This document shows positions 1,908 to 42,318 of a DNA stretch of 64,000 nucleotides, one piece after another (position 1 is the first letter of the stretch; each line of letters opens with the position of its first letter). A program made the translations under genes and the position numbers. The notes under the pieces are model-generated. The model saw nothing but the letters and a program-made list of their open reading frames with translations, did no database searches and was not told where the DNA came from. This DNA comes from an uncultured Ignavibacteria bacterium (lineage in GTDB: Bacteria > Zixibacteria > MSB-5A5 > CAIYYT01), in the NCBI GenBank assembly GCA_964592145.1, contig CAZQBX010000002.1, positions 33,634-97,633 on the forward strand. The letters are read 5' to 3'.

Positions 1908-3359
1908 CTATAGACACATGGCACACGGGTCTGGTCCGCCGAAGAAGATGTAGTTGATCAAATAGACGACATCGGAAATCGTGACCGAGCCGCTGCAATC
2001 AGCATCGGCGGATTCCAGTGGATTTGGCGCAGTTCCGCCGCTAAAAATGTAATTAATCAGAAAAACCACGTCGCTGATGTTCACCTGGGCATTTTTGTCG
2101 GCATCGCCACACAGAAAAGGCAGAACCGTGATTGTTCCGCTGACAAAAACCGGAAGAATGGCATTGTTGTCCAATCCAGTGAGCATTGATTCGGCATTGC
2201 CGGGAGGCTCATAATTGACCATGCGGAATTTCGTTGTCCCCGGAGCGAGAGGTTCGAATCGAATGGAAAATACATGCCCGGAGCCTGGACTTATTAATGT
2301 GTCAATCTCCCACCTCCAACTGCTCAAGCCGAATTGATTCGGATATGAGCCGTAACCTTCATAGTCGTTAAGCTCTGTTACATAAAGGGGATTGATTCTT
2401 GGCCCAGCCATATCATCGGCGAATCTCCAGGGTGTTCGAAGAATTGTAGTGTTCTCGACATTCCAGTTAAAGCTGAAGCTGCGAATCGCCTCGTCGTTGA
2501 AGAGGTTAAATTCGATGAACTCTGGAATGCCTACGTACATGGTATCGGACGCAAATGATACTGTGTCGCGCACGCCCGGATCAAAATAGTATGCCGGGTT
2601 ATAGGTACCACAGGAGCATGGGGGGTGACCATCATAGACTGAGTAGCTGATTAGGTAATTGATGTCCCTAAGGTCCAGATGACGATCGCAATTGATATCA
2701 AATGATTGGTAATATCCGGCGGAGACCCAAAAGTGTCCTACCAAGCACTTGTGGATGCGAAGCCAGTCGTTGGAATTTGCATGCCCGGAACCATCTGCGT
2801 CTCCAACAACATAATCGCAGGCGATTTGAATCTCACCTGATTGAAATTGCGGCACAAAGCTGGTTGCCGAAACATCAGTCAGAATCAGGCCCGAAGCACC
2901 CGAAGTATCCAATACAACGGTCCCGCCAAAGCGCACTCGAAACCACAACTTGCAGATCTGGCCGCTGCCAACGGCGAGGTTCAAACCGGAACTCACCCCG
3001 AATTGAATGCTTACCTTTTCGGTGACGAAGGAGTCAGTCTCGACGATGACAGCCTGCCGGAAGTCAAGAATTGCCGGATCGTCAAGACGACCGCCGGTAA
3101 AAGAAACCGAGTCAAAGGTCGCCCAACCAGAAGAGCAATCAATCAGCAGCGGAATCTCGATTGAAGTGAGTTCCTCATCGTTTGCCAGGAATACTGGAAT
3201 TGGTATCGACTGTGAAGGTACTCCAAAGTTGGCACAGGCGCATGAGTCGCTCCCAATTGAAAGCGTGTCCGCAACTCCGGGATCTTGCGCGAACAAACAG
3301 CGAATCGATACAATTGTAATGACGACGATCAGTACAGTGAGGTTTCTTAAGGATTCCAT
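1908..3359 (-). CDS. secreted dockerin-repeat protein, tandem paralog 2
   Basis: Same length as paralog 1 (483 aa) from the internal ATG at 3359 (MESLRNLTVLIVVITIVSIRCLFAQDP). The C-terminal roughly 140 aa and the signal peptide are nearly identical to paralog 1, while the middle has diverged. The ORF-track N-terminal extension to 3674 overlaps the pilT end and is unlikely to be real. Confidence 0.75.
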   Translation of the reverse strand: MESLRNLTVLIVVITIVSIRCLFAQDPGVADTLSIGSDSCACANFGVPSQSIPIPVFLANDEELTSIEIPLLIDCSSGWATFDSVSFTGGRLDDPAILDFRQAVIVETDSFVTEKVSIQFGVSSGLNLAVGSGQICKLWFRVRFGGTVVLDTSGASGLILTDVSATSFVPQFQSGEIQIACDYVVGDADGSGHANSNDWLRIHKCLVGHFWVSAGYYQSFDINCDRHLDLRDINYLISYSVYDGHPPCSCGTYNPAYYFDPGVRDTVSFASDTMYVGIPEFIEFNLFNDEAIRSFSFNWNVENTTILRTPWRFADDMAGPRINPLYVTELNDYEGYGSYPNQFGLSSWRWEIDTLISPGSGHVFSIRFEPLAPGTTKFRMVNYEPPGNAESMLTGLDNNAILPVFVSGTITVLPFLCGDADKNAQVNISDVVFLINYIFSGGTAPNPLESADADCSGSVTISDVVYLINYIFFGGPDPCAMCL

Positions 3360-29688: not shown

Positions 29689-32600
29689 CTAAAGCTCTTT
29701 GCCGCGCTTGAGGCGATATTCGGCCACAAGGCTGTGCATGACCGGAACCGTCAGAACTGTAATGAGCGCAATGGTCATGCCGCCAAACGACGGGATTGCC
29801 ATGGGGATCATGACGTCAGATCCTTTGCCGGATGAAGTGAGAACAGGAATCAACGCTAATAGCGTGGTGGCGACAGTCATCAGCGCGGGACGAATTCGAA
29901 TAGAGCCGGCTTGTATGATAGCTTCTTTGATTTCCACGGCGGTTGCCGGTTTCTTCTCGGTAAAGACTTGCTTGATGTACGTTGAAATCAATACACCATC
30001 GTCAGTCGCTACTCCGAACAGCGCCAGAAAGCCAACCCAGACGGCAACGGAGAGATTGTACATCTTAATATTGTAAAGCTCGCGGACATTTTCGCCAAAA
30101 AGGGAGAAGTTAAGAAACCAGTCCTGTCCGTAAAACCACATCATCAAGAACCCACCTGACCAAGCCACGAAGATGCCGGTGAAGACCAACATTGTTACCG
30201 GCACATCGCGGAACTGGAAGTAGATCAGCATAAAGATGATAAAGAGCGCAAGCGGGATGACGATTCTCAGCGTCTTCTCAGAGCGGATTTGATTTTCATA
30301 ACTGCCGGCAAAACTGTAACTCACACCGGCCGGTATGACAAACTCGCCGGACGCGATTTTTTCTTTCAGGAACTGATCGGCTTCCTCGACCACATCAACT
30401 TCGGCGCGACCCGGTTTCTTGTCAAAGATAACGTAGCCGGTAAGGAAAGTATCCTCGGATCGGATCATCATTGGTCCGCGAACGTAGTTGATTCGCGCCA
30501 GTTCGATCAGCGGAATTTGCTTGCCGTCCGAAGTTGGGACCAGGACGCGTGCTATATCTTCGATGGAATTGCGCAACTCCCGCTGATAACGCACGCGGAC
30601 CGGATATCGTTCACGGCCTTCGACAGTAGTGGTTATCGGCATGCCGCCGAGCGCGACTTCGATCACATCCTGTACATCGCGAATAGATAATCCATAGCGC
30701 GCAATGGCTTCGCGATCGATCTCAATCTCGAGATACGGATTGCCAACGATACGGTCAGCAACAACTGTTGCCGGTTCGACCGAGCCGACCTCCTTGAGCA
30801 GTCTTTCAACTTCCAGGCCCACGGCATCGACTGTTTCGAGATTCGGTCCTTTGATCTTCACGCCCATCGGCGCCCGCATTCCCGATTGCAGCATGACGAT
30901 TCGCGCCGCAATCGGCTGCAGCTTTGGCGCCGAAGTCACGCCAACAACCTTCCCGGCCTTGACGAGTTCTTCCCAAATATCATTGGCCGATCGAATATGA
31001 TCCCGCCATTGCCTGAACGGTTTGCCGTCCTCATCTGGAATCAGTCTGCCATTCTGATCGCGGACGAATGCGTTTGAGTCATCATCGAATCGGAACTTCA
31101 GGCGATTGCCGTCAGTATCGCTGATGTATTCGGATTTGTAGCTGATCACCGTCTCAATCATGGAGGTAGGCGCCGGGTCGAGTGACGACTCGACACGACC
31201 GAGCTTGCCGACGACAGATTCAATTTCGGGAACACTTTCGAAAGCTTTATCTTGAAGTTGGAGTATGCTTAAAGCCTCATCGATAGAAGCATGCGGCATC
31301 GTGGTCGGCATGTAGAGGAACGAGCCTTCATCGAGATCCGGCATGAATTCTTTGCCTGTACCGGGGAAAGCATGATTAAGCGCCACATACGGCGATGACG
31401 AGCGGATGAAGTTCGGCAGAAAACCAAAAATCGAATCAAAACCGAGCCACACCACGAAACCGATCGATACCAATCCCACCGGCATTGAGAGAAACAACAA
31501 TCGGTTATTCAGGCACCAGCGCAACACCGGCTGATAGACATGGATGAATAATTGAAATAGTGCCAGGATACCGCCGATGACAAACACGACGAAAATGAAA
31601 TTCAGCAATTCGCCCCTGCCAACACCCAATGGCATCCAGTGTTTAGTGAGAATTGAAGCGACAAATAAGGCGAGCGCGTAGTTGATGTAGCGCGGCATAT
31701 TCCGCTGAAGTGAATCGGAAAGCATCGGCTTGGCAATCATATAAGCAGCAATTGCCAAGAGCATGAGACCGGCCAGCCACAATGACCAGACAGCAATCAG
31801 GATGACGCCGGCGATGCCGAGGCCGACGGGTATTAGTCGTGAACTGCGTTTTTCCTTGCCTGGATTACTGAACATCATGTGTGCCAGAGCCGGGACGATC
31901 GTCAGTGCAACAATGACTGACGCAACCAGGGCAAAGGTTTTGGTATATGCCAGCGGCTTAAACATCTTGCCTTCGGCAGCTATCATGGTAAACACCGGCA
32001 AGAACGAAACTACTGTGGTGGCGATGGTAGTGAGTACCGCCGAGCCGACTTCCGAGGTGGCTGTAAAGATAATATCGCGGCGTGAGGTACCGGGCGGCGC
32101 TTTATCAAAGTGTCGCAGGATGTTCTCACAGATGACAATGCCCATATCCACAATGTCGCCGATGGCGATCGCAATTCCGGCGAGGGCCATGACATTGGCG
32201 TCGACGCCGAACATCTTCATCCCGATAAACGAGCCAAAGACTGCGACCGGGAGGAGCCCCGATATCAGCAATGAGCTGCGCAAGTGCATTACCATGACGA
32301 GGACGACGATGATCGTGACGATAATCTCATCGACAATTGCGGAGTTAAGTGTTCCGAGTGTCTCATAGATGAGGCCAGTACGATCATAGAACGGAACGAT
32401 GGTAACCTTCGAGACAGTGCCGTCGGCCAAGGTCTTCTGCGGCAGTCCGGCCGAGAGTTCAGCGATCTTGAGTTTGACATTCTTAATCGTCGCCAGCGGG
32501 TTCTGCCCGAATCGCGCCACAACCACGCCCCCGACGACTTCGGCACCGCCTTTGTCAAGCGCCCCACGCCGCATCGCCGGACCGAGCGTAACGGTGGCGA

Positions 32601-33477
32601 CATCTTTGAGCCGGACAGGCAGGTTGTTAGTTTGCTTGATTACCGAATTCTCGAGATCGGTGACGCTCTTTAGGAAACCAACGCCACGAATGGTGTATTC
32701 GACATTGTTGATCTCAATGGTGCCGGCACCGACATCAATGTTGGATTTGCGGACAGCCTCAAAGACGTCCTCAAGCATCACGTCGAAGGCGCGTAATGCG
32801 CTGGGGTTGACATCTACCTGATACTCTTTGACGAACCCGCCAATTGAAGCAACTTCGGCAACGCCTTCTGCAGATTGCAGAGAATAGCGAACTGTCCAAT
32901 CTTGAATCGACCTAAGCTCCTGCAAGTCCCAGCCGCCGGTCGCGTTGCCGGACGGGTCGCGTCCTTCCAGCGTATACCAGAAGACTTGTCCCAGCGCGGT
33001 CGCATCCGGACCGAGGGCGGGCTTTACACCTGGCGGGAGAACTTCCGCCGGAAGCGCATTCAGCTTCTCGAGAATTCGTGTCCGCGACCAGTAGAACTCG
33101 ACGTCATCGGTGAAGATTATGTAGATCGTGGAGAACCCGAGGTAGGAGTAGCTACGAATCGTCTTAACGCCGGGAAGCCCTAACAGCGCCGAGGTCAGTG
33201 GATAAGTAATCTGATTTTCGATATCCTGCGCCGAACGGCCGTCCCATTCGGTGAAGACGATTTGTTGATTTTCGCCGATATCGGGAATCGCGTCGACGCC
33301 GACCGGGTCGCGAGGAAGAAAGTCAATGTCCCAGTCAAACGGCGCAACCATCGTGCCCCAAACGAGTACCGCCAGGGTCATCAGCAAGACGACCAGTTTG
33401 TTGTCGAGACAGAACGCGATGATGCGGTCGATCATTGACATTCTTGATGGATCAGGGATTTGATATCGGTTACTCAT
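29689..33477 (-). CDS. cusA: HME-RND heavy-metal efflux pump, CusA/CzcA family (1262 aa)
   Basis: 12-TM RND layout, family motifs (AIGDIVDMGIV, GIAIAIGD-like), ATGA-adjacent to cusB. Confidence 0.9.
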   Translation of the reverse strand: MSNRYQIPDPSRMSMIDRIIAFCLDNKLVVLLMTLAVLVWGTMVAPFDWDIDFLPRDPVGVDAIPDIGENQQIVFTEWDGRSAQDIENQITYPLTSALLGLPGVKTIRSYSYLGFSTIYIIFTDDVEFYWSRTRILEKLNALPAEVLPPGVKPALGPDATALGQVFWYTLEGRDPSGNATGGWDLQELRSIQDWTVRYSLQSAEGVAEVASIGGFVKEYQVDVNPSALRAFDVMLEDVFEAVRKSNIDVGAGTIEINNVEYTIRGVGFLKSVTDLENSVIKQTNNLPVRLKDVATVTLGPAMRRGALDKGGAEVVGGVVVARFGQNPLATIKNVKLKIAELSAGLPQKTLADGTVSKVTIVPFYDRTGLIYETLGTLNSAIVDEIIVTIIVVLVMVMHLRSSLLISGLLPVAVFGSFIGMKMFGVDANVMALAGIAIAIGDIVDMGIVICENILRHFDKAPPGTSRRDIIFTATSEVGSAVLTTIATTVVSFLPVFTMIAAEGKMFKPLAYTKTFALVASVIVALTIVPALAHMMFSNPGKEKRSSRLIPVGLGIAGVILIAVWSLWLAGLMLLAIAAYMIAKPMLSDSLQRNMPRYINYALALFVASILTKHWMPLGVGRGELLNFIFVVFVIGGILALFQLFIHVYQPVLRWCLNNRLLFLSMPVGLVSIGFVVWLGFDSIFGFLPNFIRSSSPYVALNHAFPGTGKEFMPDLDEGSFLYMPTTMPHASIDEALSILQLQDKAFESVPEIESVVGKLGRVESSLDPAPTSMIETVISYKSEYISDTDGNRLKFRFDDDSNAFVRDQNGRLIPDEDGKPFRQWRDHIRSANDIWEELVKAGKVVGVTSAPKLQPIAARIVMLQSGMRAPMGVKIKGPNLETVDAVGLEVERLLKEVGSVEPATVVADRIVGNPYLEIEIDREAIARYGLSIRDVQDVIEVALGGMPITTTVEGRERYPVRVRYQRELRNSIEDIARVLVPTSDGKQIPLIELARINYVRGPMMIRSEDTFLTGYVIFDKKPGRAEVDVVEEADQFLKEKIASGEFVIPAGVSYSFAGSYENQIRSEKTLRIVIPLALFIIFMLIYFQFRDVPVTMLVFTGIFVAWSGGFLMMWFYGQDWFLNFSLFGENVRELYNIKMYNLSVAVWVGFLALFGVATDDGVLISTYIKQVFTEKKPATAVEIKEAIIQAGSIRIRPALMTVATTLLALIPVLTSSGKGSDVMIPMAIPSFGGMTIALITVLTVPVMHSLVAEYRLKRGKEL

Positions 33478-33480
33478 CGA

Positions 33481-35331
33481 TTAATTCACTGCCTCGAGCG
33501 TCTCTTTGATCTCGCCACAACGCAACATCATTGCGCCATAGAACGAATTGTAAACCGTGTCGACCGTTTGCAGCCAATAGGCGCCTTTGTTATCGCGCGC
33601 CATCGGACAGAACGTCAGGTAGTAATTCATGCCACTGCCGTGACCGAATGCACTCTCAAGCTCAATAATTGCTTTGGAGAGATGGAAGAAGGCGTCGCGC
33701 GCTCCTTCTAAGTCCGTGGCAACGGCGGCCTTCTCGGAATTCTTCTGCATCTGCTGTGCCAATTCCATCCAGCGACTATGTGCGGAGCCGGAGAAAAGGG
33801 ACATATCCACGTTACCAATAGTTTTGGCAAGTTGGGCGGCTGATTGTTGAGAGGCTATGACATCGTCCGCCGCCAACGCCATTTGGAACTTGAAATAATC
33901 ATTGTAGAGCGGAGTCAAGGCATCCCGAGCGGTCTCGGAAACCGCAAGTGTCTCGTTCGTTGATGAGGATCCTTTTGTTGCGGAACTGTGCTCATGCGAT
34001 GCCGGTGCGGCGCCGCCTTCGGGTGACATCATGCTTGGCTTCGCCTGAATCTGCAGTTCGCTGTCGATCTTGAAGGCACCGTTAGTGACGACCATGTCGC
34101 CCTCGACCAGTCCGTCAAGCACGACATAGTGATCGTCGATCCGGGAACCGAGCGTTATCTCGCGACCTTCAAACAAGGGACCGTCTTCGCTGGGAAGCTG
34201 CAGATAAACTACTGCCCGTTTGCCGGTGAAAAGGACAGCGGAGGCCGGCACGAGGAGTGAATTATCGGCTCCGCCGGCGCGTGTATCGACCGCAGACTTT
34301 GCCGTAGCCGTGACAAACATGTCGGGCTTTAGCCGCCCGCGGGCATTATCGACAACTGTACGCACTTGAACAGTGCGAGTCATCGGGTCGACTGTCGGGT
34401 TGATGAAACTAACCTTAGCAGCAAACTCCTCGCCTGGGATCGACTGTGAGTTAAACTTGATTTCATCGCCGATCTTGATGAGCGCCAGATCCGATTCGTA
34501 AGCTTCGAACACCGCCCATAGCTTCGAGAGGTCAGCAATTCGGAATAAGTCCATTCCGGTTTCGACGTACTGCCCTTCGACTACCATCTTCTCAACAACA
34601 GTCCCGCCATCGGGAGCGACCACCGAGATATGATCAGCGACGTCAGTCTGCGATTCAATACTTGCGATTTGTTCATCACTGAAACCAAGGAGTCGCAGTT
34701 TCTCAATGGCGGCGCGAACAGTTGCCTCGGAAGTGCTCTTCAGGATTTCGCTGTTTGATTCAGCCACACTCTGGAGTGACACCCTGGCTGCGATGAGCTC
34801 CTTCTGTGCGGACAGGAGTTCAGGCGAATAGAGTTCAAGCATTTTTTCGCCGCGCCTGACGGGCTGACCTGTTGTGTTGATGTATAGCCGGTCGATACGT
34901 CCACCGATCCGGGCGGTTATACGGGAGAGTTTTGTCTCATCGGCTGACAGTTTGCCGTAGAGTCGCAATTCGCTTTGTGCGGCACCTCGCGTAACCGGCG
35001 AAGTCGAGATTTGTGCAAGTTGTTTGGATGACTCGGACATCCGCAGTTGACGCGGACCGAGGTCTTCCGCGCCATCGGTCGTAAGTGGAATCAGATCCAT
35101 GAAGCAAATCGGACACTTGCCTTCTTTGGGTAGCTTGATCTGCGGATGCATCGAGCAAGTCCAGACCTGTGGCCCATTCGACGTTTCGCCTGACGCGCCA
35201 ATTTCTGGCGAAGTTGATTTTCCGCCGGAAAGGAGTGCACCGAGGGTGAAGGCGACAATCGTCACGGCGGCGATCGCTATCCAGAATGCCGGTTGTCTCA
35301 TCAGACCATTGCGATTGTTGAATTCATTCAT
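33481..35331 (-). CDS. cusB: RND efflux membrane-fusion protein (CusB-like) with N-terminal metal-binding motif and C-terminal DUF3347-like extension
   Basis: WTCSMHPQIKLPKEGKCPICFMDL (CusB/SilB N-terminal metal site), HlyD-like beta-barrel/lipoyl core, and a roughly 180-aa helical C-terminal tail. Confidence 0.85.
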   Translation of the reverse strand: MNEFNNRNGLMRQPAFWIAIAAVTIVAFTLGALLSGGKSTSPEIGASGETSNGPQVWTCSMHPQIKLPKEGKCPICFMDLIPLTTDGAEDLGPRQLRMSESSKQLAQISTSPVTRGAAQSELRLYGKLSADETKLSRITARIGGRIDRLYINTTGQPVRRGEKMLELYSPELLSAQKELIAARVSLQSVAESNSEILKSTSEATVRAAIEKLRLLGFSDEQIASIESQTDVADHISVVAPDGGTVVEKMVVEGQYVETGMDLFRIADLSKLWAVFEAYESDLALIKIGDEIKFNSQSIPGEEFAAKVSFINPTVDPMTRTVQVRTVVDNARGRLKPDMFVTATAKSAVDTRAGGADNSLLVPASAVLFTGKRAVVYLQLPSEDGPLFEGREITLGSRIDDHYVVLDGLVEGDMVVTNGAFKIDSELQIQAKPSMMSPEGGAAPASHEHSSATKGSSSTNETLAVSETARDALTPLYNDYFKFQMALAADDVIASQQSAAQLAKTIGNVDMSLFSGSAHSRWMELAQQMQKNSEKAAVATDLEGARDAFFHLSKAIIELESAFGHGSGMNYYLTFCPMARDNKGAYWLQTVDTVYNSFYGAMMLRCGEIKETLEAVN

Positions 35332-35416: not shown

Positions 35417-35917
35417 TTATCCGTGGTTGTGACCTTCGTGGCCGGTTGGTTCCTTCTTCTCCTCTTTCGGAGCCGGCTTCTGCTCGTCGAGTTTCTTTAA
35501 GTACTTCTGTGCATCCTTCGGAAACATGCTCTTGCACTTATTGCAGCAGAAGTAAACACGACGGCCTTCAAAATCACTGAAGACGGTTTTGTCTTCGAGT
35601 GTTTCACCCGAGACCGGGCAAGCAGTCTGAATATTCTGGAACAGCACACCTTCGGCTGCGGCTTTCCTGAAGTACTTATCCGGTTCGGCTTTCAACTTGG
35701 CGATGCACATCGGGCAACAGTGGTAGACACGTTGCCCCTGAATGTCGGTATAAACAGTCGAATCGATCTTGCCGCCCATTACCGGACAGTGGGTTTGATT
35801 CTTCAACTCCTTGGGAGCGTCTTTCTTTGCATCGCTCTTGGATTCCTGGCCGAATGCCGCCATCGCGGCGACAACAGTCAGCGCGATGATTGCGAACATG
35901 ATTTTGCGTAACTTCAT
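35417..35917 (-). CDS. periplasmic tandem YHS/TRASH-domain metal-binding protein with His-rich tail
   Basis: Signal peptide; two HCPVMGGKI...YHCCPMC / CPVSGE...YFCCNKC YHS-like units; C-terminal HEGHNHG. Confidence 0.75.
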   Translation of the reverse strand: MKLRKIMFAIIALTVVAAMAAFGQESKSDAKKDAPKELKNQTHCPVMGGKIDSTVYTDIQGQRVYHCCPMCIAKLKAEPDKYFRKAAAEGVLFQNIQTACPVSGETLEDKTVFSDFEGRRVYFCCNKCKSMFPKDAQKYLKKLDEQKPAPKEEKKEPTGHEGHNHG

Positions 35918-35933: not shown

Positions 35934-37283
35934 TTATTTATTGGTTGTTGGACTGCTTAGTAACGTTCCAGTGATCATTTCCAATTGTGCCAGACGGGCA
36001 GCGGCGTCTACCTTGGCGCGTTCTGCAGTGAGTTCGAAATCGAACAATTGTCGCTGGGCGTCGAGCAACATCAGGAAGTCAGTCTGTCCCGACTGGTAGG
36101 ATGTGAACGAGACGTTGAGCGATTCTTTCGCCTTAGGGATGAGTCCGTTGCGATATAGACGAAGTTTTCGCAGAGCGTCGGCATACTCGAAATTCGTCAT
36201 CGCAATCATTGAGGCGACGTCATTACGCTCTTCCTGATACATGTACTCGCTCATTCTGACTCGCGAACGCGCGGCATCGCGCATGGCACGGTTCTTGCCG
36301 AACCATATTGGCAAGGAAACCTGGACCGTCAACATGTACTCGTTCATGGTCTCCTTCTCAAGCGTCATATTATCAAGAAGTGTCGAGCGCTCGTATTCAA
36401 TACCAAACATCAATTCCGGCCAGGTCATCTTCTTGACCACCGAAACTTCCGCCCGCTGTGACTCGATTTGTTTAGATATGGATGCCAGATTAGGACTCGC
36501 GACTTCCGCAACTGCAACGAGTGAGTCGGTGGAGAGTGACAATTCCGGAACTGAAAAATCACTTGGCCATGGCAGGCTGGTTCCAGACGGCAGATTGAGC
36601 AGGGCCAATAAACGGGACTGGGCCGGCCGAAGCATCTGCTCCATGCTCCGTATCATCTCCTCCATTTGTCCCAACTCGATTTGTGCCTTGATGAGATCGG
36701 GATGCATTGCCACTCCGGCTTGATAACGGGTTCGAATGACATTTTCGAACTGGCGCATCAACTCGAAGCTCTCTTGCGTCAGGGCAAGCTGTCGTGCGGA
36801 GAGGTAGTAGTCATAGTAGGCGGACTTGACTTGATAGATGGTGCGGAGTTTTTCAGCGAGATAGGACTGATAGTCTGCATCCGAAGTTAAAGCCGCTGCG
36901 TTCTTCTTTGCACCCAAGGTGCCAAACCAAGGGAATGGCTGCATGAGTGCAAATTTCTGGCGGTCAGGCCCTACCGGATCGGAAAACTTCGTGTAACCAT
37001 AAGAGTAACTCAAAAGGGGATTGTCGAGCGCGCCGGCAGAACCCTTCATTGCAGTAGACTCTTGCCACTTCTCGAAGGCTGACTTGATCCCGCTACGATT
37101 ACTGAGTGCCAGATCAATGTAGGTCTGCAATGTGGCATTGGAGTCAATCGCGGTTAAATAGGAGCCAGAGGAAGAGCTGCCGACTGTCAATGGCTGTCCA
37201 TTCAGCAGTGCCGGTCTCGCAATAAATGCCAACAGAACTATGGCGATTAGTTTCTTCACAGGCTTCGTTACATCAAGTATCAT
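35934..37283 (-). CDS. cusC: TolC-family outer-membrane efflux protein (CusC-like)
   Basis: OEP-family tandem repeats, signal peptide, first gene of the efflux operon. Confidence 0.85.
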   Translation of the reverse strand: MILDVTKPVKKLIAIVLLAFIARPALLNGQPLTVGSSSSGSYLTAIDSNATLQTYIDLALSNRSGIKSAFEKWQESTAMKGSAGALDNPLLSYSYGYTKFSDPVGPDRQKFALMQPFPWFGTLGAKKNAAALTSDADYQSYLAEKLRTIYQVKSAYYDYYLSARQLALTQESFELMRQFENVIRTRYQAGVAMHPDLIKAQIELGQMEEMIRSMEQMLRPAQSRLLALLNLPSGTSLPWPSDFSVPELSLSTDSLVAVAEVASPNLASISKQIESQRAEVSVVKKMTWPELMFGIEYERSTLLDNMTLEKETMNEYMLTVQVSLPIWFGKNRAMRDAARSRVRMSEYMYQEERNDVASMIAMTNFEYADALRKLRLYRNGLIPKAKESLNVSFTSYQSGQTDFLMLLDAQRQLFDFELTAERAKVDAAARLAQLEMITGTLLSSPTTNK

Positions 37284-37315
37284 GCCATCGCTCGTAACTT
37301 ATTGTTTATCATTGT

Positions 37316-37321
37316 ATTATA
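37316..37321 (-). promoter_or_regulatory. candidate -10 box (TATAAT on the minus strand) for the cusC operon
   Basis: The minus strand reads ctgTATAATacaatg about 35 nt upstream of the cusC ATG. No good -35 lies at 17 bp; the palindrome below covers that position. Confidence 0.35.
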
Positions 37322-37353
37322 CAGAATAGTACGCGCTGTGATTGTTTCAAGAT

Positions 37354-37387
37354 GGAGAATATTCTACATTGTTGTAGAATATTCTCC
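37354..37387. promoter_or_regulatory. perfect 15-bp inverted repeat (operator or enhancer-binding-protein site) in the divergent cusC / two-component intergenic region
   Basis: GGAGAATATTCTACA-ttgt-TGTAGAATATTCTCC; each arm contains the self-palindromic 10-mer AGAATATTCT. Confidence 0.7.
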
Positions 37388-37487
37388 AATCGAGAGTGTT
37401 AGAGATCGTACAATGAGGGTGGCTGTTTTGGCCGTTGTCCATATGCAACTTGACCTTGGGAGTGTTGTTGCACAAGGCATTCGCCAG

Positions 37488-37503
37488 TGGCATCGGGATT
37501 GCT
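37488..37503 (+). promoter_or_regulatory. sigma-54 (-24/-12) promoter motif upstream of the histidine kinase / sigma-54 activator operon
   Basis: TGGCAT-cggga-TTGCT: GG at 37489-90 and GC at 37501-02 with exactly 10 nt between them, flanked by consensus T residues. It lies about 120 bp downstream of the palindrome. Confidence 0.55.
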
Positions 37504-37513
37504 GTATAGATTG

Positions 37514-38593
37514 ATGAACCTGGAAAGGAAGCGATTGATCAGTATTGACGACAAGCGGTATAAGATTGCCACGATTGCCGCGATAACGCTGTTAACAACA
37601 GCAATTCACTACGGCTTCGTGCTTGAACCGATCTTTGGTGACGCACACTGGATTCACGCTGTTCACAGCCGATTCTGCTACATCCCAATTGTAATTGCCG
37701 CTGCCTGGTTTGGCTTACGCGGCGGATTGTGGACCGCGACCGCGATCACAATAACGGTTTTACCGTACGTTTTTGGCTCACAATCAAGTGAGCACAATTT
37801 TGCGGGAGAGCTGGTTGAGATCGTCTTCTATTTTGCGTTGGCGCTGTTAATCGGCGCATTGGTCGACCGAGAATGGCGGGCGCGCCGGCGGCAGCAAGAG
37901 ACGCAACTTCAACTCGAACGCTCACAGAAGCTCTCATTAGTCGGACAGGTGGCAGCAGGCGTTGCCCACGAACTGAAAAATCCGTTGGCTTCCATCAAAG
38001 GCGCGGTTGAGATCATCAGCGACGAAAACACCACGGAGAATGAAAGAAGTGAGTTCAGCGAGATTCTGTTTCGTGAAATCAAAAGGATGGATGGTACAGT
38101 TACGGAGTTTCTGGAATTTGCCCGTCCTAAACCGACTCGAATGGAGCGGCTTGACCTTTCGCAATTAGTGCAATCAAGTCTTCGTCAGTTGGAGGCACAG
38201 GCAGCCAAAGAGTCGATCACGATCGCGGAGGAGCTTGAGTCGGGCGAAGTAATTGAAGGGGACCGCGAAAAACTCCATCAGCTGATTCTGAACATTGTTT
38301 TGAATGGAATCCAAGCTTCAAGAGCCGGTGGCACCATAAAAGTAGCGCTTCGCGGTCATGCTCACGATGTTGAACTTACGTTCCATGACAACGGCCAAGG
38401 CATAAGCGCCGCAGATCTTGATCGGATTTTTGAGCCCTTTTATACTACGAGAGCCTCGGGCAGCGGGCTGGGGCTGGCAATCGTGAAATCGATCATCGAT
38501 GCGCACGGCGGAACAATCGCCATTAAGAGTGAGGTCGATGCCGGAACGACGGTCCTGGTCCAATTACCGCGCCAAGTCGGGGTCCGGTCATGA
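37514..38593 (+). CDS. sensor histidine kinase (membrane N-terminus, HisKA, HATPase_c)
   Basis: H-box VAHELKNPLASIKGAVEII, N/G1/G2 boxes (LNIVLNGIQAS, HDNGQGI, GSGLGLAIV). The start is ambiguous: ATG at 37514, or TTG at 37535 after GGAAAGGAAG. The ORF-track GTG at 37487 overlaps the sigma-54 motif. Confidence 0.85.
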   Translation: MNLERKRLISIDDKRYKIATIAAITLLTTAIHYGFVLEPIFGDAHWIHAVHSRFCYIPIVIAAAWFGLRGGLWTATAITITVLPYVFGSQSSEHNFAGELVEIVFYFALALLIGALVDREWRARRRQQETQLQLERSQKLSLVGQVAAGVAHELKNPLASIKGAVEIISDENTTENERSEFSEILFREIKRMDGTVTEFLEFARPKPTRMERLDLSQLVQSSLRQLEAQAAKESITIAEELESGEVIEGDREKLHQLILNIVLNGIQASRAGGTIKVALRGHAHDVELTFHDNGQGISAADLDRIFEPFYTTRASGSGLGLAIVKSIIDAHGGTIAIKSEVDAGTTVLVQLPRQVGVRS

Positions 38594-39927
38594 TGCGAAT
38601 ACTCCTTGCCGATGACGATACTGCCTTGCGCCGGGTTCTGGAGTTCAAATTAAAAAAGAACGGATTTGACGTTGCGGCGGTTGCTGACGGTGAAGAAGCG
38701 CTCGCACGTGTGAAGGCCGGCTCCTTTGATCTGTTGCTCGCCGATATTCGGATGCCGAGACTGACCGGTATTGAACTCCTCGAGAAAGTCCGGACGCTGG
38801 AACCTTCACTCAAAGTGATTCTCATGACCGCCTACGCAACTGTGCCACAGGCAGTCGAAGCTGTCAAAATGGGCGCATTTGACTACTTGACCAAACCATT
38901 TGAAGACGAGCAGTTGTTGGTGACGATTGATCAAGCGCTGAAATTCAAGCGGCTTGAAGATGAGAATCAGCGACTGAAGGCGGAACTAAACTTGCGTTCC
39001 GGGCTGCACGAGATCATCGGCGATTCGGAACCCGTTCGAGAGCTGAAGGAGATAATCACGCAAGTCGCGCCAACAGATGCGACGGTGTTGATCACTGGCG
39101 AATCGGGAAGCGGAAAGGAACTTGTGGCGCGGGCAATTCATGCTTTGAGTTCGCGATTTGGAGCCCAGATGGTGGCGGTCAATTGTGCAGCATTGCCGCG
39201 CGACCTTCTGGAATCGGAGTTGTTTGGCCATGTGAAGGGTGCGTTCACCGGTGCAGCGAAGGATAAACGGGGAAAGTTCGAGATCGCCGGCGGTGGAACT
39301 TTGATGCTCGATGAAATCAGCGAGTTGGCATTTGACTTGCAGGCAAAACTCCTGCGAGTAATTCAAGAGCGAACAGTATCGCCGGTGGGAAGCGAGTCGA
39401 ATCGCGAAGTGGACGTCCGCATCATTGCCGCTACTAATGTCAACCTGAAGAAACGGGTCGCCGAGGGTAAATTCCGCGAGGACCTGTTCTACCGTCTGAA
39501 CGTCATCCCGATTCATGTGCCAAGCCTTCGCAAGCGATCTTCCGACATTCCGCTTCTGGTGAGCCATTTCCTCGGACGGCTTGCGCCACGGACCGAGGTC
39601 AGGCTGGACGCGGAGTTGATGGCAATTCTGATACGACACCGTTGGCCCGGCAATGTCCGCGAATTGGAGAACCTGATCGAGCGAATGGTGGTCCTGCGCC
39701 ACGGCGATACATTGACGAAAGCAGATTTACCGCACGACTTCTCCATCGAGTGGGAGAAGCCGGAGGTTCAGCAGGCGGTAACGTTCCATGAAGCGGAGAA
39801 GAGCCTGATTCTGAGCGCGCTTGAAAAAAGCAACGGAAACCGCACCAAAGCCGCGGAATTGCTGGCGATTCCGCGACATGTATTGCTGTATCGACTGAAG
39901 AAGTATGGTATTGTCACCGACGATTGA
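38590..39927 (+). CDS. sigma-54-dependent response regulator (NtrC/ZraR family)
   Basis: REC domain (DDD...K), AAA+ sigma-54 activation domain with GESGSGKE and GAFTGA, C-terminal Fis-type HTH; ATGA overlap with the kinase. Confidence 0.92.
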   Translation: MMRILLADDDTALRRVLEFKLKKNGFDVAAVADGEEALARVKAGSFDLLLADIRMPRLTGIELLEKVRTLEPSLKVILMTAYATVPQAVEAVKMGAFDYLTKPFEDEQLLVTIDQALKFKRLEDENQRLKAELNLRSGLHEIIGDSEPVRELKEIITQVAPTDATVLITGESGSGKELVARAIHALSSRFGAQMVAVNCAALPRDLLESELFGHVKGAFTGAAKDKRGKFEIAGGGTLMLDEISELAFDLQAKLLRVIQERTVSPVGSESNREVDVRIIAATNVNLKKRVAEGKFREDLFYRLNVIPIHVPSLRKRSSDIPLLVSHFLGRLAPRTEVRLDAELMAILIRHRWPGNVRELENLIERMVVLRHGDTLTKADLPHDFSIEWEKPEVQQAVTFHEAEKSLILSALEKSNGNRTKAAELLAIPRHVLLYRLKKYGIVTDD

Positions 39928-39993
39928 GGCGGCAGTCTGAATCCACAAGAATCGCTTTGCCTCCAGGCCACAAACCTGTAATCTTGCATTAAT

Positions 39994-42318
39994 ATGAACT
40001 GGAAACGTTTTTTCGTCATACTGGGCCTCTCCGTTGTCATCCTCGTTAGTGCGGGTTTGATCGCGGTGAAGATTCTCGTTTCTCCAGACACAATAACACG
40101 GGCAATTGTGCCGAAACTTTCGGCGATGCTTGATCGCGAGGTGTCAATCGGAAAGGCGGAACTGGGTCTGTTCCCAATCGGCGTTCGTATTGCCGACGTG
40201 ACGATTGCAAATAAGGGTCAGTTCGCAGACCGGCCATTGGCAAAAATCGATCACATTGATGCAAACCTCCAGTATTTGCCGTTGCTGCTGGGCAGAATCA
40301 AGGTCAAGGAAGTAGCCATCCATGGATGGGAAATGCTGCTCTTCAAGGACTCGTTGGGTTCAACCAATTACGATTTCTTTTCGGCGCGCGCCATGTTGCC
40401 GAATGAACAACAGCAATTTGAAGAACCGCTTTGCCGTAAGTTTCGTCTGGACAGCGGTCGGCTGCTGATGCGCGATGATTCAACCGGATTTCGCTTTGTG
40501 CTTGGCAATGTCCGACTAAGTTATGACTTGCTCGGGGAGCGACAGTCGGAAATTCTGGGCAAGTTGGAAGTTGATTCGCTGTTCGTGTGGGCCGGAACGG
40601 GAACCTTCCTCATACAGCCGAACGCACTGGCCACCGACTGGCGAGGATTCTACTCGCTTGGCAGAGACTCGCTGTCATTGCGGCGTTGTGAATGGCGGCT
40701 TGACAAGTTCTCCGGCCGACTGGAAGGTTCGGTCGGGAGAATAACGTCGTCGCCTTCGATAAATCTCCGGCTGCTTTCCGAACGCACCGACTTGTCGACC
40801 TGCAGAGAATCCCGCATACTGGCGGCAGTTCCCTTGCTTCGCGATCTTGACCTCGGCGGACAGATTCGTGTTGATATCGCCTATTCAGGCAGGGCCGGTG
40901 TACCGACAAGCCGCAGCCTGCGCGGCAAAGTATCGGTAACGGATTTCACAGGTGTTCTTGCGGAGAAGAGTATTGATCTGCGAATGAAGCTGCTGGAGGC
41001 AAACTTCAACGAGCAGACCTTGTCGTTATTTACCGAAAACGGTTTCATTGGTTCATCGCCGGCGTCATTTCGGCTAACCGTGGACAACTACAGCGATCCA
41101 ACCTATTCCGGCGAAGTGAATCTGACTAGTGATGCAATGACTTTGGCCCGGATCCTTGGTGCGAAAGCGACATCAACTTTTGGCGGCCTGGTTGAAGCCA
41201 ATCTCTCCGGATTCGTCCGACCCTCTGCTCCGGAACAAGGCCGCGTTTTTGGATCGCTGGTCGTCTCAGGGTTATCGGCAAGAGATTCATCGGCCGGTTG
41301 GTCGCTGGATACATTGAATGCAGAAATACATTGCAGCGGCAACTATGCACAAATACCGCAGTTTGACTTGAGCATCGGTGGAAATCGCCTCCAGGCGTTC
41401 GGCAACGTTACAGATTTTCCATTACTACTCTCCGAAGGCATGAAGGTTCGCAAGCGTCCCCGGCTGGAATTCAGCATTACCAGTGATTACTTCAACTTCG
41501 ATACTCTGACGACCATTGGCGGAAACGACCAGGCAGCCGCAGACACTAACGCCTTCACGGCCATTGTTGACCGGTTGATTGACTTCGACGCTATAGGCCA
41601 AGTTCGGGTGAAGGCTGGTCGCGCCGCCGGGGTTGACTTCGAGACACTGGATTCTCGCCTGTCGGTGACGAATCGAATAATCTACAGCGACACATTATCA
41701 ATCGGTGTTTTCGGCGGATCGGTAAGCGGTGAAGTTATCTATGATTTCAATGAACTCCTGAAACCCGACTTTGAACTGGATATTCGCGGGAAAGAAGTCT
41801 CGGTGGACCAATTTCTAAATCGCTGCACCGGATTTGGTGAGACGTTATCCGGAGAAATTGACCTGCAGCTCGTCGCGCGGGGACGCGGGCTGACCGCGAT
41901 AGAATATCGGCCGACGCTGAACATCAAGGGTCGCGCGATCATTGAGGACGGCAGAATTGAGTCGTTTGACTTGAGTCGGCGCTTCGAGGGTTTCGCCGGT
42001 ATTAAAGCGTTCGATAACCGGCGTGTTGATGATCTTGTCGCAAACTTTATCTATGCCGACCAGACATTGCGTTTCAACCAACTGGTATTTGACTCTGACG
42101 ACATTGAGTATTCGATTGAAGGGACGGTTACTCAGGACGGATTGGCAGACCTGTTGATCAACCGGAAGCTCTCCAAGGATGACTCGCAAGTGCTCGAGTC
42201 AAGGCCGGAGTTTCGTGATCTGAGCGGCGGCAGGCAGGCAAAGTGGGCGACGTTTCGGGCTTCCGGACCTGTTGGGAATCCTTCATTTCGCATAGTGTCA
42301 GTGCGACAGAAAGATTGA
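39994..42318 (+). CDS. AsmA-family protein
   Basis: N-terminal membrane anchor ([20 protein letters not shown]) followed by a long beta-rich AsmA-like domain. Confidence 0.75.

Follow-up and report, generated by a model that had tools for sequence, protein, structure and literature searches.

The window analyzed here, a stretch of 64,000 nucleotides (nt) of contig CAZQBX010000002.1 from an uncultured Zixibacteria-type organism, contains a two-component system next to a set of metal-efflux genes (Table 1). On the plus strand, a histidine kinase gene and a gene for an NtrC-family sigma-54 activator form a two-gene operon, with a 4-nt overlap (ATGA) between the kinase stop and the activator start, and an AsmA-like gene follows. 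On the minus strand, across a short intergenic region, lies an operon encoding an outer-membrane efflux protein (OEP), a YHS-domain protein, a CusB-like fusion protein, and a CusA-like pump. A motif directly ahead of the kinase gene, at 37488–37503, resembles a sigma-54 (−24/−12) promoter and is the subject of this analysis. We regard it as quite probable that the segment 37487–37503 is a functional sigma-54 promoter located in a non-coding spacer before the kinase/activator operon (kinase start at TTG 37535), that this operon is positively autoregulated, and that it shares its enhancer with a promoter for the efflux operon.

The locus was compared with seven orthologous loci (kinase identity to the window: L081, 92%; L082, 87%; L084, 85%; L088, 82%; L085, 80%; L086, 75%; L087, 74%), and counts out of eight include the window itself. 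The close homologs belong to Zixibacteria metagenome-assembled genomes. A scan of genome contigs with the kinase was dominated by generic histidine-kinase patterns and gave only L001 and L002 as members of the family. The gene order kinase, activator, AsmA-like gene is common to all orthologs. The initial annotation of the window had identified the gene after the kinase as encoding a sigma-54 activator, and this is borne out by the Pfam domains of the product and by its GAFTGA motif, which is identical in all eight loci; the helix-turn-helix region is nearly identical among the orthologs.

Table 1. Features of the kinase/activator and efflux region (positions in the window; strand is given as + or −, or as a dot where none applies).
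Feature	Position	Strand	Basis or remark
Sigma-54 (−24/−12) promoter of the kinase/activator operon (proposed)	37487..37503	+	G-TGGCAT-CGGGA-TTGCT; consensus match and ortholog conservation
Predicted transcription start	37514 (±2 nt)	+	11 nt past the 17-mer; rule from E. coli ChIP-seq sites
Ribosome-binding site GGAAAGGAAG	37522..37531	+	In the predicted 21-nt leader
Histidine kinase gene, corrected TTG start	37535..38593	+	352 residues; membrane domain, HisKA, HATPase_c (Pfam); P0001; homolog N-termini
NtrC-family sigma-54 activator gene	38590..39927	+	Pfam REC, Sigma54_activat (AAA+), HTH_8; GAFTGA present
AsmA-like gene	39994–42318	+	Pfam
Candidate enhancer (upstream activating sequence), two AGAATATTCT units	37354..37387	.	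GGAGAATATTCTACA-ttgt-TGTAGAATATTCTCC; perfect 15-nt inverted repeat
Third conserved box CGTACAAT (consensus CGTAnAAT)	37407..37414	+	Present in 8/8 loci
Second sigma-54-type promoter ATGGCATGATACTTGAT (proposed)	37272..37288	−	A-TGGCAT-GATAC-TTGAT; faces the metal-efflux operon
OEP gene, start revised to GTG 37259 (MKKLIAIVLLAF...)	35934..37259	−	Pfam; first gene of the efflux operon
YHS-domain gene	35417–35917	−	Pfam
CusB-like fusion protein gene	33481–35331	−	Pfam
CusA/AcrB-type pump (CusA-like) gene	29689–33477	−	Pfam

The motif consists of TGGCAT (37488–37493), the spacer CGGGA, and TTGCT (37499–37503), with GG at 37489–90 and GC at 37501–02 separated by a gap of 10 nt. It fits the TGGCAC-N5-TTGCW type of consensus at 11/11 specified positions (pattern TGGCAY-N5-TTGCW), so that the sequence agrees with the initial annotation, which had described a sigma-54 consensus with exactly spaced GG and GC. 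Exact matches to this pattern occur twice in the window, at 37488 and 39326, versus 0.21 in shuffled sequences; when one mismatch was allowed, 10 matches were found versus 4.5 expected. The second exact match (39326–39341, plus strand) was rejected as a promoter and is considered a coding-driven chance match: it lies inside the AAA+ domain of the activator gene, over codons for ELAFDLQ, its synonymous positions vary, and the GG is missing in L084 and L088.

A scoring matrix was built from the 42 “intergenic sense” E. coli sigma-54 sites identified by chromatin immunoprecipitation sequencing (ChIP-seq; Bonocora et al. 2015, PMC4591121, Table 1). Scoring with a position weight matrix had been suggested in the initial annotation and, done with this E. 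coli matrix, gave the motif 11.45 bits and rank 12 in the window. This score is within the range of the bound E. coli intergenic sites (8.6–21.6 bits) and under their median of 15.9 bits. What makes 37488–37503 a probable promoter is its position and conservation, not its sequence score.

The position of the motif depends on where the kinase gene starts. The longest open reading frame (ORF) begins at GTG 37487, runs through the motif, and would encode 368 residues; ATG 37514 and TTG 37535 are in frame with it. The deposited NCBI protein P0001 (352 residues, 100% identical) begins at the TTG, and the N-termini of 27 aligned homologs converge on M-I-S-I-D-D or one residue later. Among these 27 homologs, no protein conservation was seen upstream of LISIDD, and P0006 (84% identical), the sole homolog whose gene call follows a long ORF, carries an extension that shows no relation to VASGLLYRLMNLERK. 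The frame between motif and TTG is broken by a 1-nt insertion in L081 and L082 and by a 5-nt deletion in L084. In the closest orthologs, neither the TTG nor the purine-rich ribosome-binding site varies, and a purine-rich GGA/GAGG block is retained in all orthologs. Judged from the homolog N-termini, the frame-breaking indels, and the invariant TTG with its ribosome-binding site, the segment 37487–37534 is non-coding and the kinase starts at TTG 37535, which makes the overlap of promoter and gene an artefact of the longest-ORF rule. Accordingly, the overlap of the motif with the annotated start, as described in the initial annotation, holds for the longest ORF and not for P0001, which already starts at TTG 37535.

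Two start codons, TTG 37535 and ATG 37514, had been put forward in the same annotation, and of these the former stands. It is quite unlikely that the promoter is real and that translation begins at ATG 37514 on a leaderless mRNA, yielding a kinase of 359 residues: although the A of this codon coincides with the predicted transcription start, and although a public Logan call from a near-identical strain (P0121, 359 residues) begins there with MNLERKRLISIDD, the codon is ACG in L081, TCG in L082, and deleted in L084, and the insertion shared by L081 and L082 puts this position out of frame. The seven extra residues are conserved in no homolog, whereas no change is seen in the ribosome-binding site or the TTG.

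In E. coli, transcription starts 19 bp from the center of the sigma-54 motif (PMC4591121). Applied here, this rule predicts a transcription start at 37514 and a leader of 21 nt. The distances between transcription start and gene at the E. coli sites range from 18 nt up, and that of zraS, at 21 nt, equals the distance predicted here (PMC4591121, Table 1). Given TTG 37535, the promoter site is intergenic and sense-oriented, and in the seven loci that carry the element, the predicted start lies 17 to 29 nt ahead of the kinase start codon.

The element GG-N10-GC is found at the equivalent position in seven of the eight loci. The site reads TGGCAT-CGGGA-TTGCT in the window, CGGCAT-CGGGA-TTGCT in L081, AGGCTT-CGGGA-CTGCC in L082, CGGCAT-CGGTG-TTGCT in both L084 and L088, TGGCAC-AGAAG-TTGCT in L085, and CGGCAC-CGCAT-TTGCT in L086. 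All loci share the GG and the C of GGC (8/8), TGC is retained in 7/8, and the information per position falls from 1.51 bits in the core to 0.94 bits in the spacer and 0.39 bits in the flanks. Around the site, neither L085 nor L086 is alignable with the window, yet the element is present in both, and L085 has an ideal TGGCAC-N5-TTGCT that scores 16.2 bits on the E. coli matrix. Bonocora et al. (PMC4591121) used the same pattern, in which key positions are kept while unimportant ones drift, as their criterion for functional sites. We consider this comparison with relatives decisive for the promoter reading of 37487–37503; the −24/−12 core, kept in 7/8 loci amid drifting spacer and flanks, supports the sigma-54 promoter that the initial annotation had assigned to the kinase/activator operon. 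The general lesson is that a consensus or matrix match does not suffice for calling a sigma-54 promoter, whereas comparison with relatives does.

The same evidence bears on the idea that the motif is a chance consensus match in coding sequence, devoid of promoter function, and that the kinase is translated from GTG 37487. The longest ORF does span the motif, some six such matrix matches are expected by chance in 64 kb, and the other exact match, at 39326, is demonstrably coding-driven. However, the lack of amino-acid conservation upstream of LISIDD and the frame-breaking indels in orthologs, together with a core whose distance from the start stays fixed even where lineages have unalignable flanks, make this explanation highly improbable.

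Between the two operons lies the inverted repeat listed in Table 1, each arm of which holds the self-complementary unit AGAATATTCT. The repeat is unique within the window, and its center, at 37370.5, is approximately 144 bp upstream of the predicted plus-strand start, within the range of about 80 to 150 bp expected of a sigma-54 enhancer, and approximately 110 bp upstream of the predicted minus-strand start. It is conserved in all eight loci, including L082 and L085, which have no efflux operon; in these two, an HD-domain gene replaces the efflux operon upstream, and the repeat remains with the kinase/activator operon. The window, L081, and L082 have the units in inverted orientation, L084 and L088 in direct orientation. 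Such variation is better explained by two dimer sites, 20 bp apart, than by an RNA hairpin. An Rfam search of 37200–37600 returned only noise, far under the gathering scores (mir-3047, E = 0.6; c-di-GMP riboswitch, E = 0.44). A metagenome scan for the enhancer pattern revealed no further regulon members; the matches were two contigs of the L084 species and the unrelated L089, where the site is not accompanied by a canonically spaced −24/−12 element.

We infer that the encoded activator binds the AGAATATTCT repeats at 37354–37387. Autoregulation of the kinase/activator operon, which had been the simplest interpretation in the initial annotation, is supported because the repeat, located approximately 144 bp upstream, travels with the operon when the neighbor changes, and because the activator retains GAFTGA and its helix-turn-helix. 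It is common for sigma-54-using genomes to encode several activators, and one was seen in the 64 kb examined, which leaves room for a sigma-54-dependent operon that is not autoregulated, either because the repeats are bound by another regulator or because another enhancer-binding protein activates the promoter. This is improbable, given that repeats, promoter, and activator gene stay together despite the change of upstream neighbor, that the helix-turn-helix region is almost identical among orthologs, matching the conserved site, and that the repeat occurs nowhere else in the window.

The third conserved box lies at 34 nt, counted by hand from the start of the right enhancer unit, in 4/4 loci examined in this way (window, L084, L085, and L086). 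It could serve either as a third activator half-site (GTAGAAT) or, in a basal sigma-70-type promoter, as the −10 box. On the efflux side, between the enhancer and the minus-strand promoter, there is also a TGTATAAT box (37316–37323, minus strand), which is seen as YGTAnAAT in several orthologs at a variable 44 to 47 nt from the left enhancer unit. For this box, too, there are two candidate roles, another activator half-site and a sigma-70-type −10 element.

Several observations weigh against a functional sigma-54 promoter at 37487–37503. Matches of at least 11.45 bits number 12 in the window versus 6.0 ± 2.4 expected from Markov-1 random sequences, and by itself, the sequence fails to raise 37488–37503 clearly above chance. 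L087 retains GGCAT without a canonical −12 element, the L082 site is degenerate, and most orthologs have CGGCA instead of TGGCA and reach just 5 to 8 bits on the E. coli matrix. No RpoN box was found in a six-frame translation of the 64-kb window or in the fetched Zixibacteria loci, and no literature linking Zixibacteria with sigma-54 or rpoN was found; the conserved GAFTGA loop argues indirectly for the presence of sigma-54. Finally, the CGTAnAAT box is present in 8/8 loci, at a fixed distance from the repeats in the four that were counted.

This last observation, the low matrix scores in most orthologs, and the absence of a canonical site in L087 would all suit a locus where transcription comes mainly from a sigma-70-type promoter with TACAAT (37409–37414) as its −10 element, and where the −24/−12 element is weak, poised, or vestigial within a leader of approximately 110 nt. 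An autoregulated activator also needs basal expression, and tandem sigma-70 and sigma-54 promoters are known, as in glnAp1/glnAp2. Another such tandem has been described for PexR-ahpC (PMC12754779). We nevertheless consider it unlikely that the sigma-70-type promoter dominates. There is no recognizable −35 hexamer, the sequence at 17 nt from TACAAT being CCAATC, and a scan for sigma-70 promoters gave no convincing kinase promoter and did not report TACAAT 37409–37414. The box also fits a third GTAGAAT enhancer half-site, and the exact-spacing conservation of GG and GC amid drifting surroundings would be left unexplained. Moreover, both promoters could coexist, which would leave the sigma-54 promoter unrefuted.

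A second, divergent sigma-54-type element, of which the initial annotation made no mention, precedes the efflux operon on the minus strand. With 14.46 bits on the E. coli matrix, it ranks fifth in the window and outscores the kinase-side site. An element is present at the equivalent position, 259 to 272 nt before the kinase start, in all six efflux-bearing loci, with scores of 14.5 to 17.1 bits in five of them and 4.1 bits in L088; the site was not found in L082. The more distant homolog L001 (53%) carries the minus-strand site as well as a plus-strand site at −34. Information amounts to 1.61 bits in the core versus 0.86 bits in the flanks. The −12 element is invariably TTGAT or TTGTT (6/6 loci) and thus lacks the C; −12 elements of the TTGA/TTGT type occur in about 10% of the E. 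coli sites, for example at pspA, pspG, and ygeW (PMC4591121, Table 1).

The longest ORF of the OEP gene (35934–37283) starts at ATG 37283, which falls inside the minus-strand motif. In 6/6 loci, a GTG or ATG opening a typical signal peptide is located 11 to 14 nt past the 17-mer. The start at ATG 37283 is probably wrong, and GTG 37259 is likely the true one. Two gene starts are thus corrected, that of the kinase to TTG 37535 instead of GTG 37487 or ATG 37514, and that of OEP to GTG 37259 instead of ATG 37283. By the E. coli rule, the leader of the efflux operon is predicted to measure 1 to 4 nt, which would be essentially leaderless and unusual. Read by hand, the L001 sequence has 28 nt between promoter and start, among them an AGGAAAA ribosome-binding site. 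In L085, despite the absence of an efflux operon, a weaker sigma-54-like site, GTGGCAAGATGGTTGAT, occurs at 2783–2799 (minus strand; 9.7 bits) and is followed by a 17-codon ORF only. It is possible that a divergent operon was lost and that this site is left over from it.

In the mechanism that we propose, where the binding of sigma-54 and of the activator, the signal, and the positions of the transcription starts are inferred, sigma-54 RNA polymerase would wait on 37487–37503 as a closed complex. The kinase would sense a signal, probably a metal, and phosphorylate the activator, which would assemble on the AGAATATTCT repeats at 37354–37387 and possibly also on the CGTACAAT box. The activator would then loop to the promoter, approximately 120 to 145 bp away, hydrolyze ATP, and open the complex, and transcription would begin near 37514, producing a 21-nt leader with a ribosome-binding site. 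The same enhancer would serve the minus-strand promoter at 37272–37288, which would drive the OEP/YHS/CusB/CusA heavy-metal efflux operon, likely the main output of the circuit.

The closest known parallel in layout is zraP-zraSR (hydHG) of E. coli and Salmonella, where ZraR acts on the divergent sigma-54 promoters of zraSR and zraP (PMC4987338). Both are two-component systems with an NtrC-family activator encoded after the kinase, in a context of metal and envelope stress, and both have two divergent sigma-54 promoters in one intergenic region (here proposed at 37487–37503 on the plus strand and 37272–37288 on the minus strand), one of which serves the system's own operon. They differ in that here an RND heavy-metal efflux operon (OEP, YHS, CusB-like, and CusA-like) takes the place of the periplasmic chaperone gene zraP as divergent target, that the efflux-side −12 element here has no C, and that the host is an uncultured Zixibacteria-type organism. 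The kinase also differs from ZraS: it has 352 residues and a compact membrane domain with many invariant His and Cys, and a periplasmic sensor domain of the ZraS type was not detected. On this comparison, the locus would work like ZraSR; it is not its ortholog.

Other sigma-54 activators provide parallels for the arrangement of the sites. NorR (norVW) needs three enhancer sites (PMC2831303), and PexR-ahpC also has a three-site enhancer (PMC12754779). As in these systems, a short divergent intergenic region holds closely spaced candidate activator sites upstream of a sigma-54 promoter, here as two full units and a candidate third box. NorR and PexR work as single-component sensors, with regulatory domains of the GAF or ATP-binding type, whereas the activator here is a response regulator, and the site sequences are unrelated. 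The paradigm for a response-regulator activator is NtrC, which, at glnAp1/glnAp2 and glnL (ntrBC), acts from upstream dimer sites on a −24/−12 promoter and controls its own operon. The locus would resemble this paradigm in the control of its own operon from upstream sites and possibly in having a sigma-70-type promoter upstream. Unlike in the NtrC paradigm, where the signal is nitrogen, the signal here is presumed to be a metal, and no TGCACC-N5-GGTGCA sites are present. On these comparisons, the locus is a further example of a well-known type of circuit.

The circuit is thus ordinary and of a textbook type, and the value of the reconstruction lies mainly in annotation and in the planning of experiments for an uncultured lineage, belonging to a phylum that has no cultured, genetically tractable members. 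What the analysis offers is a proposed wiring diagram for a metal-efflux locus, with one enhancer, two sigma-54 promoters, and positive feedback.

The N-terminal part of the kinase has a Pfam match solely to a DUF4118-like membrane domain. Within this domain (37535–37900), H41, H54, H57, H60, and C64 (HYG...FGDAHWIHAVHSRFCYIP; numbering of the 368-residue ORF) are invariant in the 27 homologs, and this His/Cys set, encoded next to a metal-efflux operon, could be an intramembrane sensor that binds metal. One may tentatively see in the locus a lineage-specific divergent sigma-54 switch, characterized by a −12 element without C, an RND efflux mRNA with a leader of 1 to 4 nt, and an intramembrane His/Cys sensor (H41, H54, H57, H60, and C64) in place of a periplasmic domain, an idea to which we would give somewhat less than even chances.

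The two best matrix scores in the window, 15.2 bits each, belong to intragenic sites at 33746–33762 (minus strand) and 36283–36299 (plus strand). The former is sense-oriented inside the CusB-like gene, 265 nt ahead of the CusA-like start. The latter was rejected as a promoter, being antisense in the OEP gene and having a GG that is not kept in the four orthologs checked (L084, L086, L087, and L088). Matches of at least 14.4 bits are over-represented in the window, with five found versus about one expected.

The spacer between the activator and AsmA-like genes (39928–39993) was rejected as a sigma-54 promoter, since its GG–GC spacing is 3 nt too long and the GG is found in just 2/8 loci. The spacer contains a conserved TTGCnT-N17-nATCTT arrangement and a TTTGC...GCAAA inverted repeat, and the ATG of the AsmA-like gene follows these elements after about 12 nt, without a ribosome-binding site. 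The elements may represent a separate sigma-70-type promoter or an operator.

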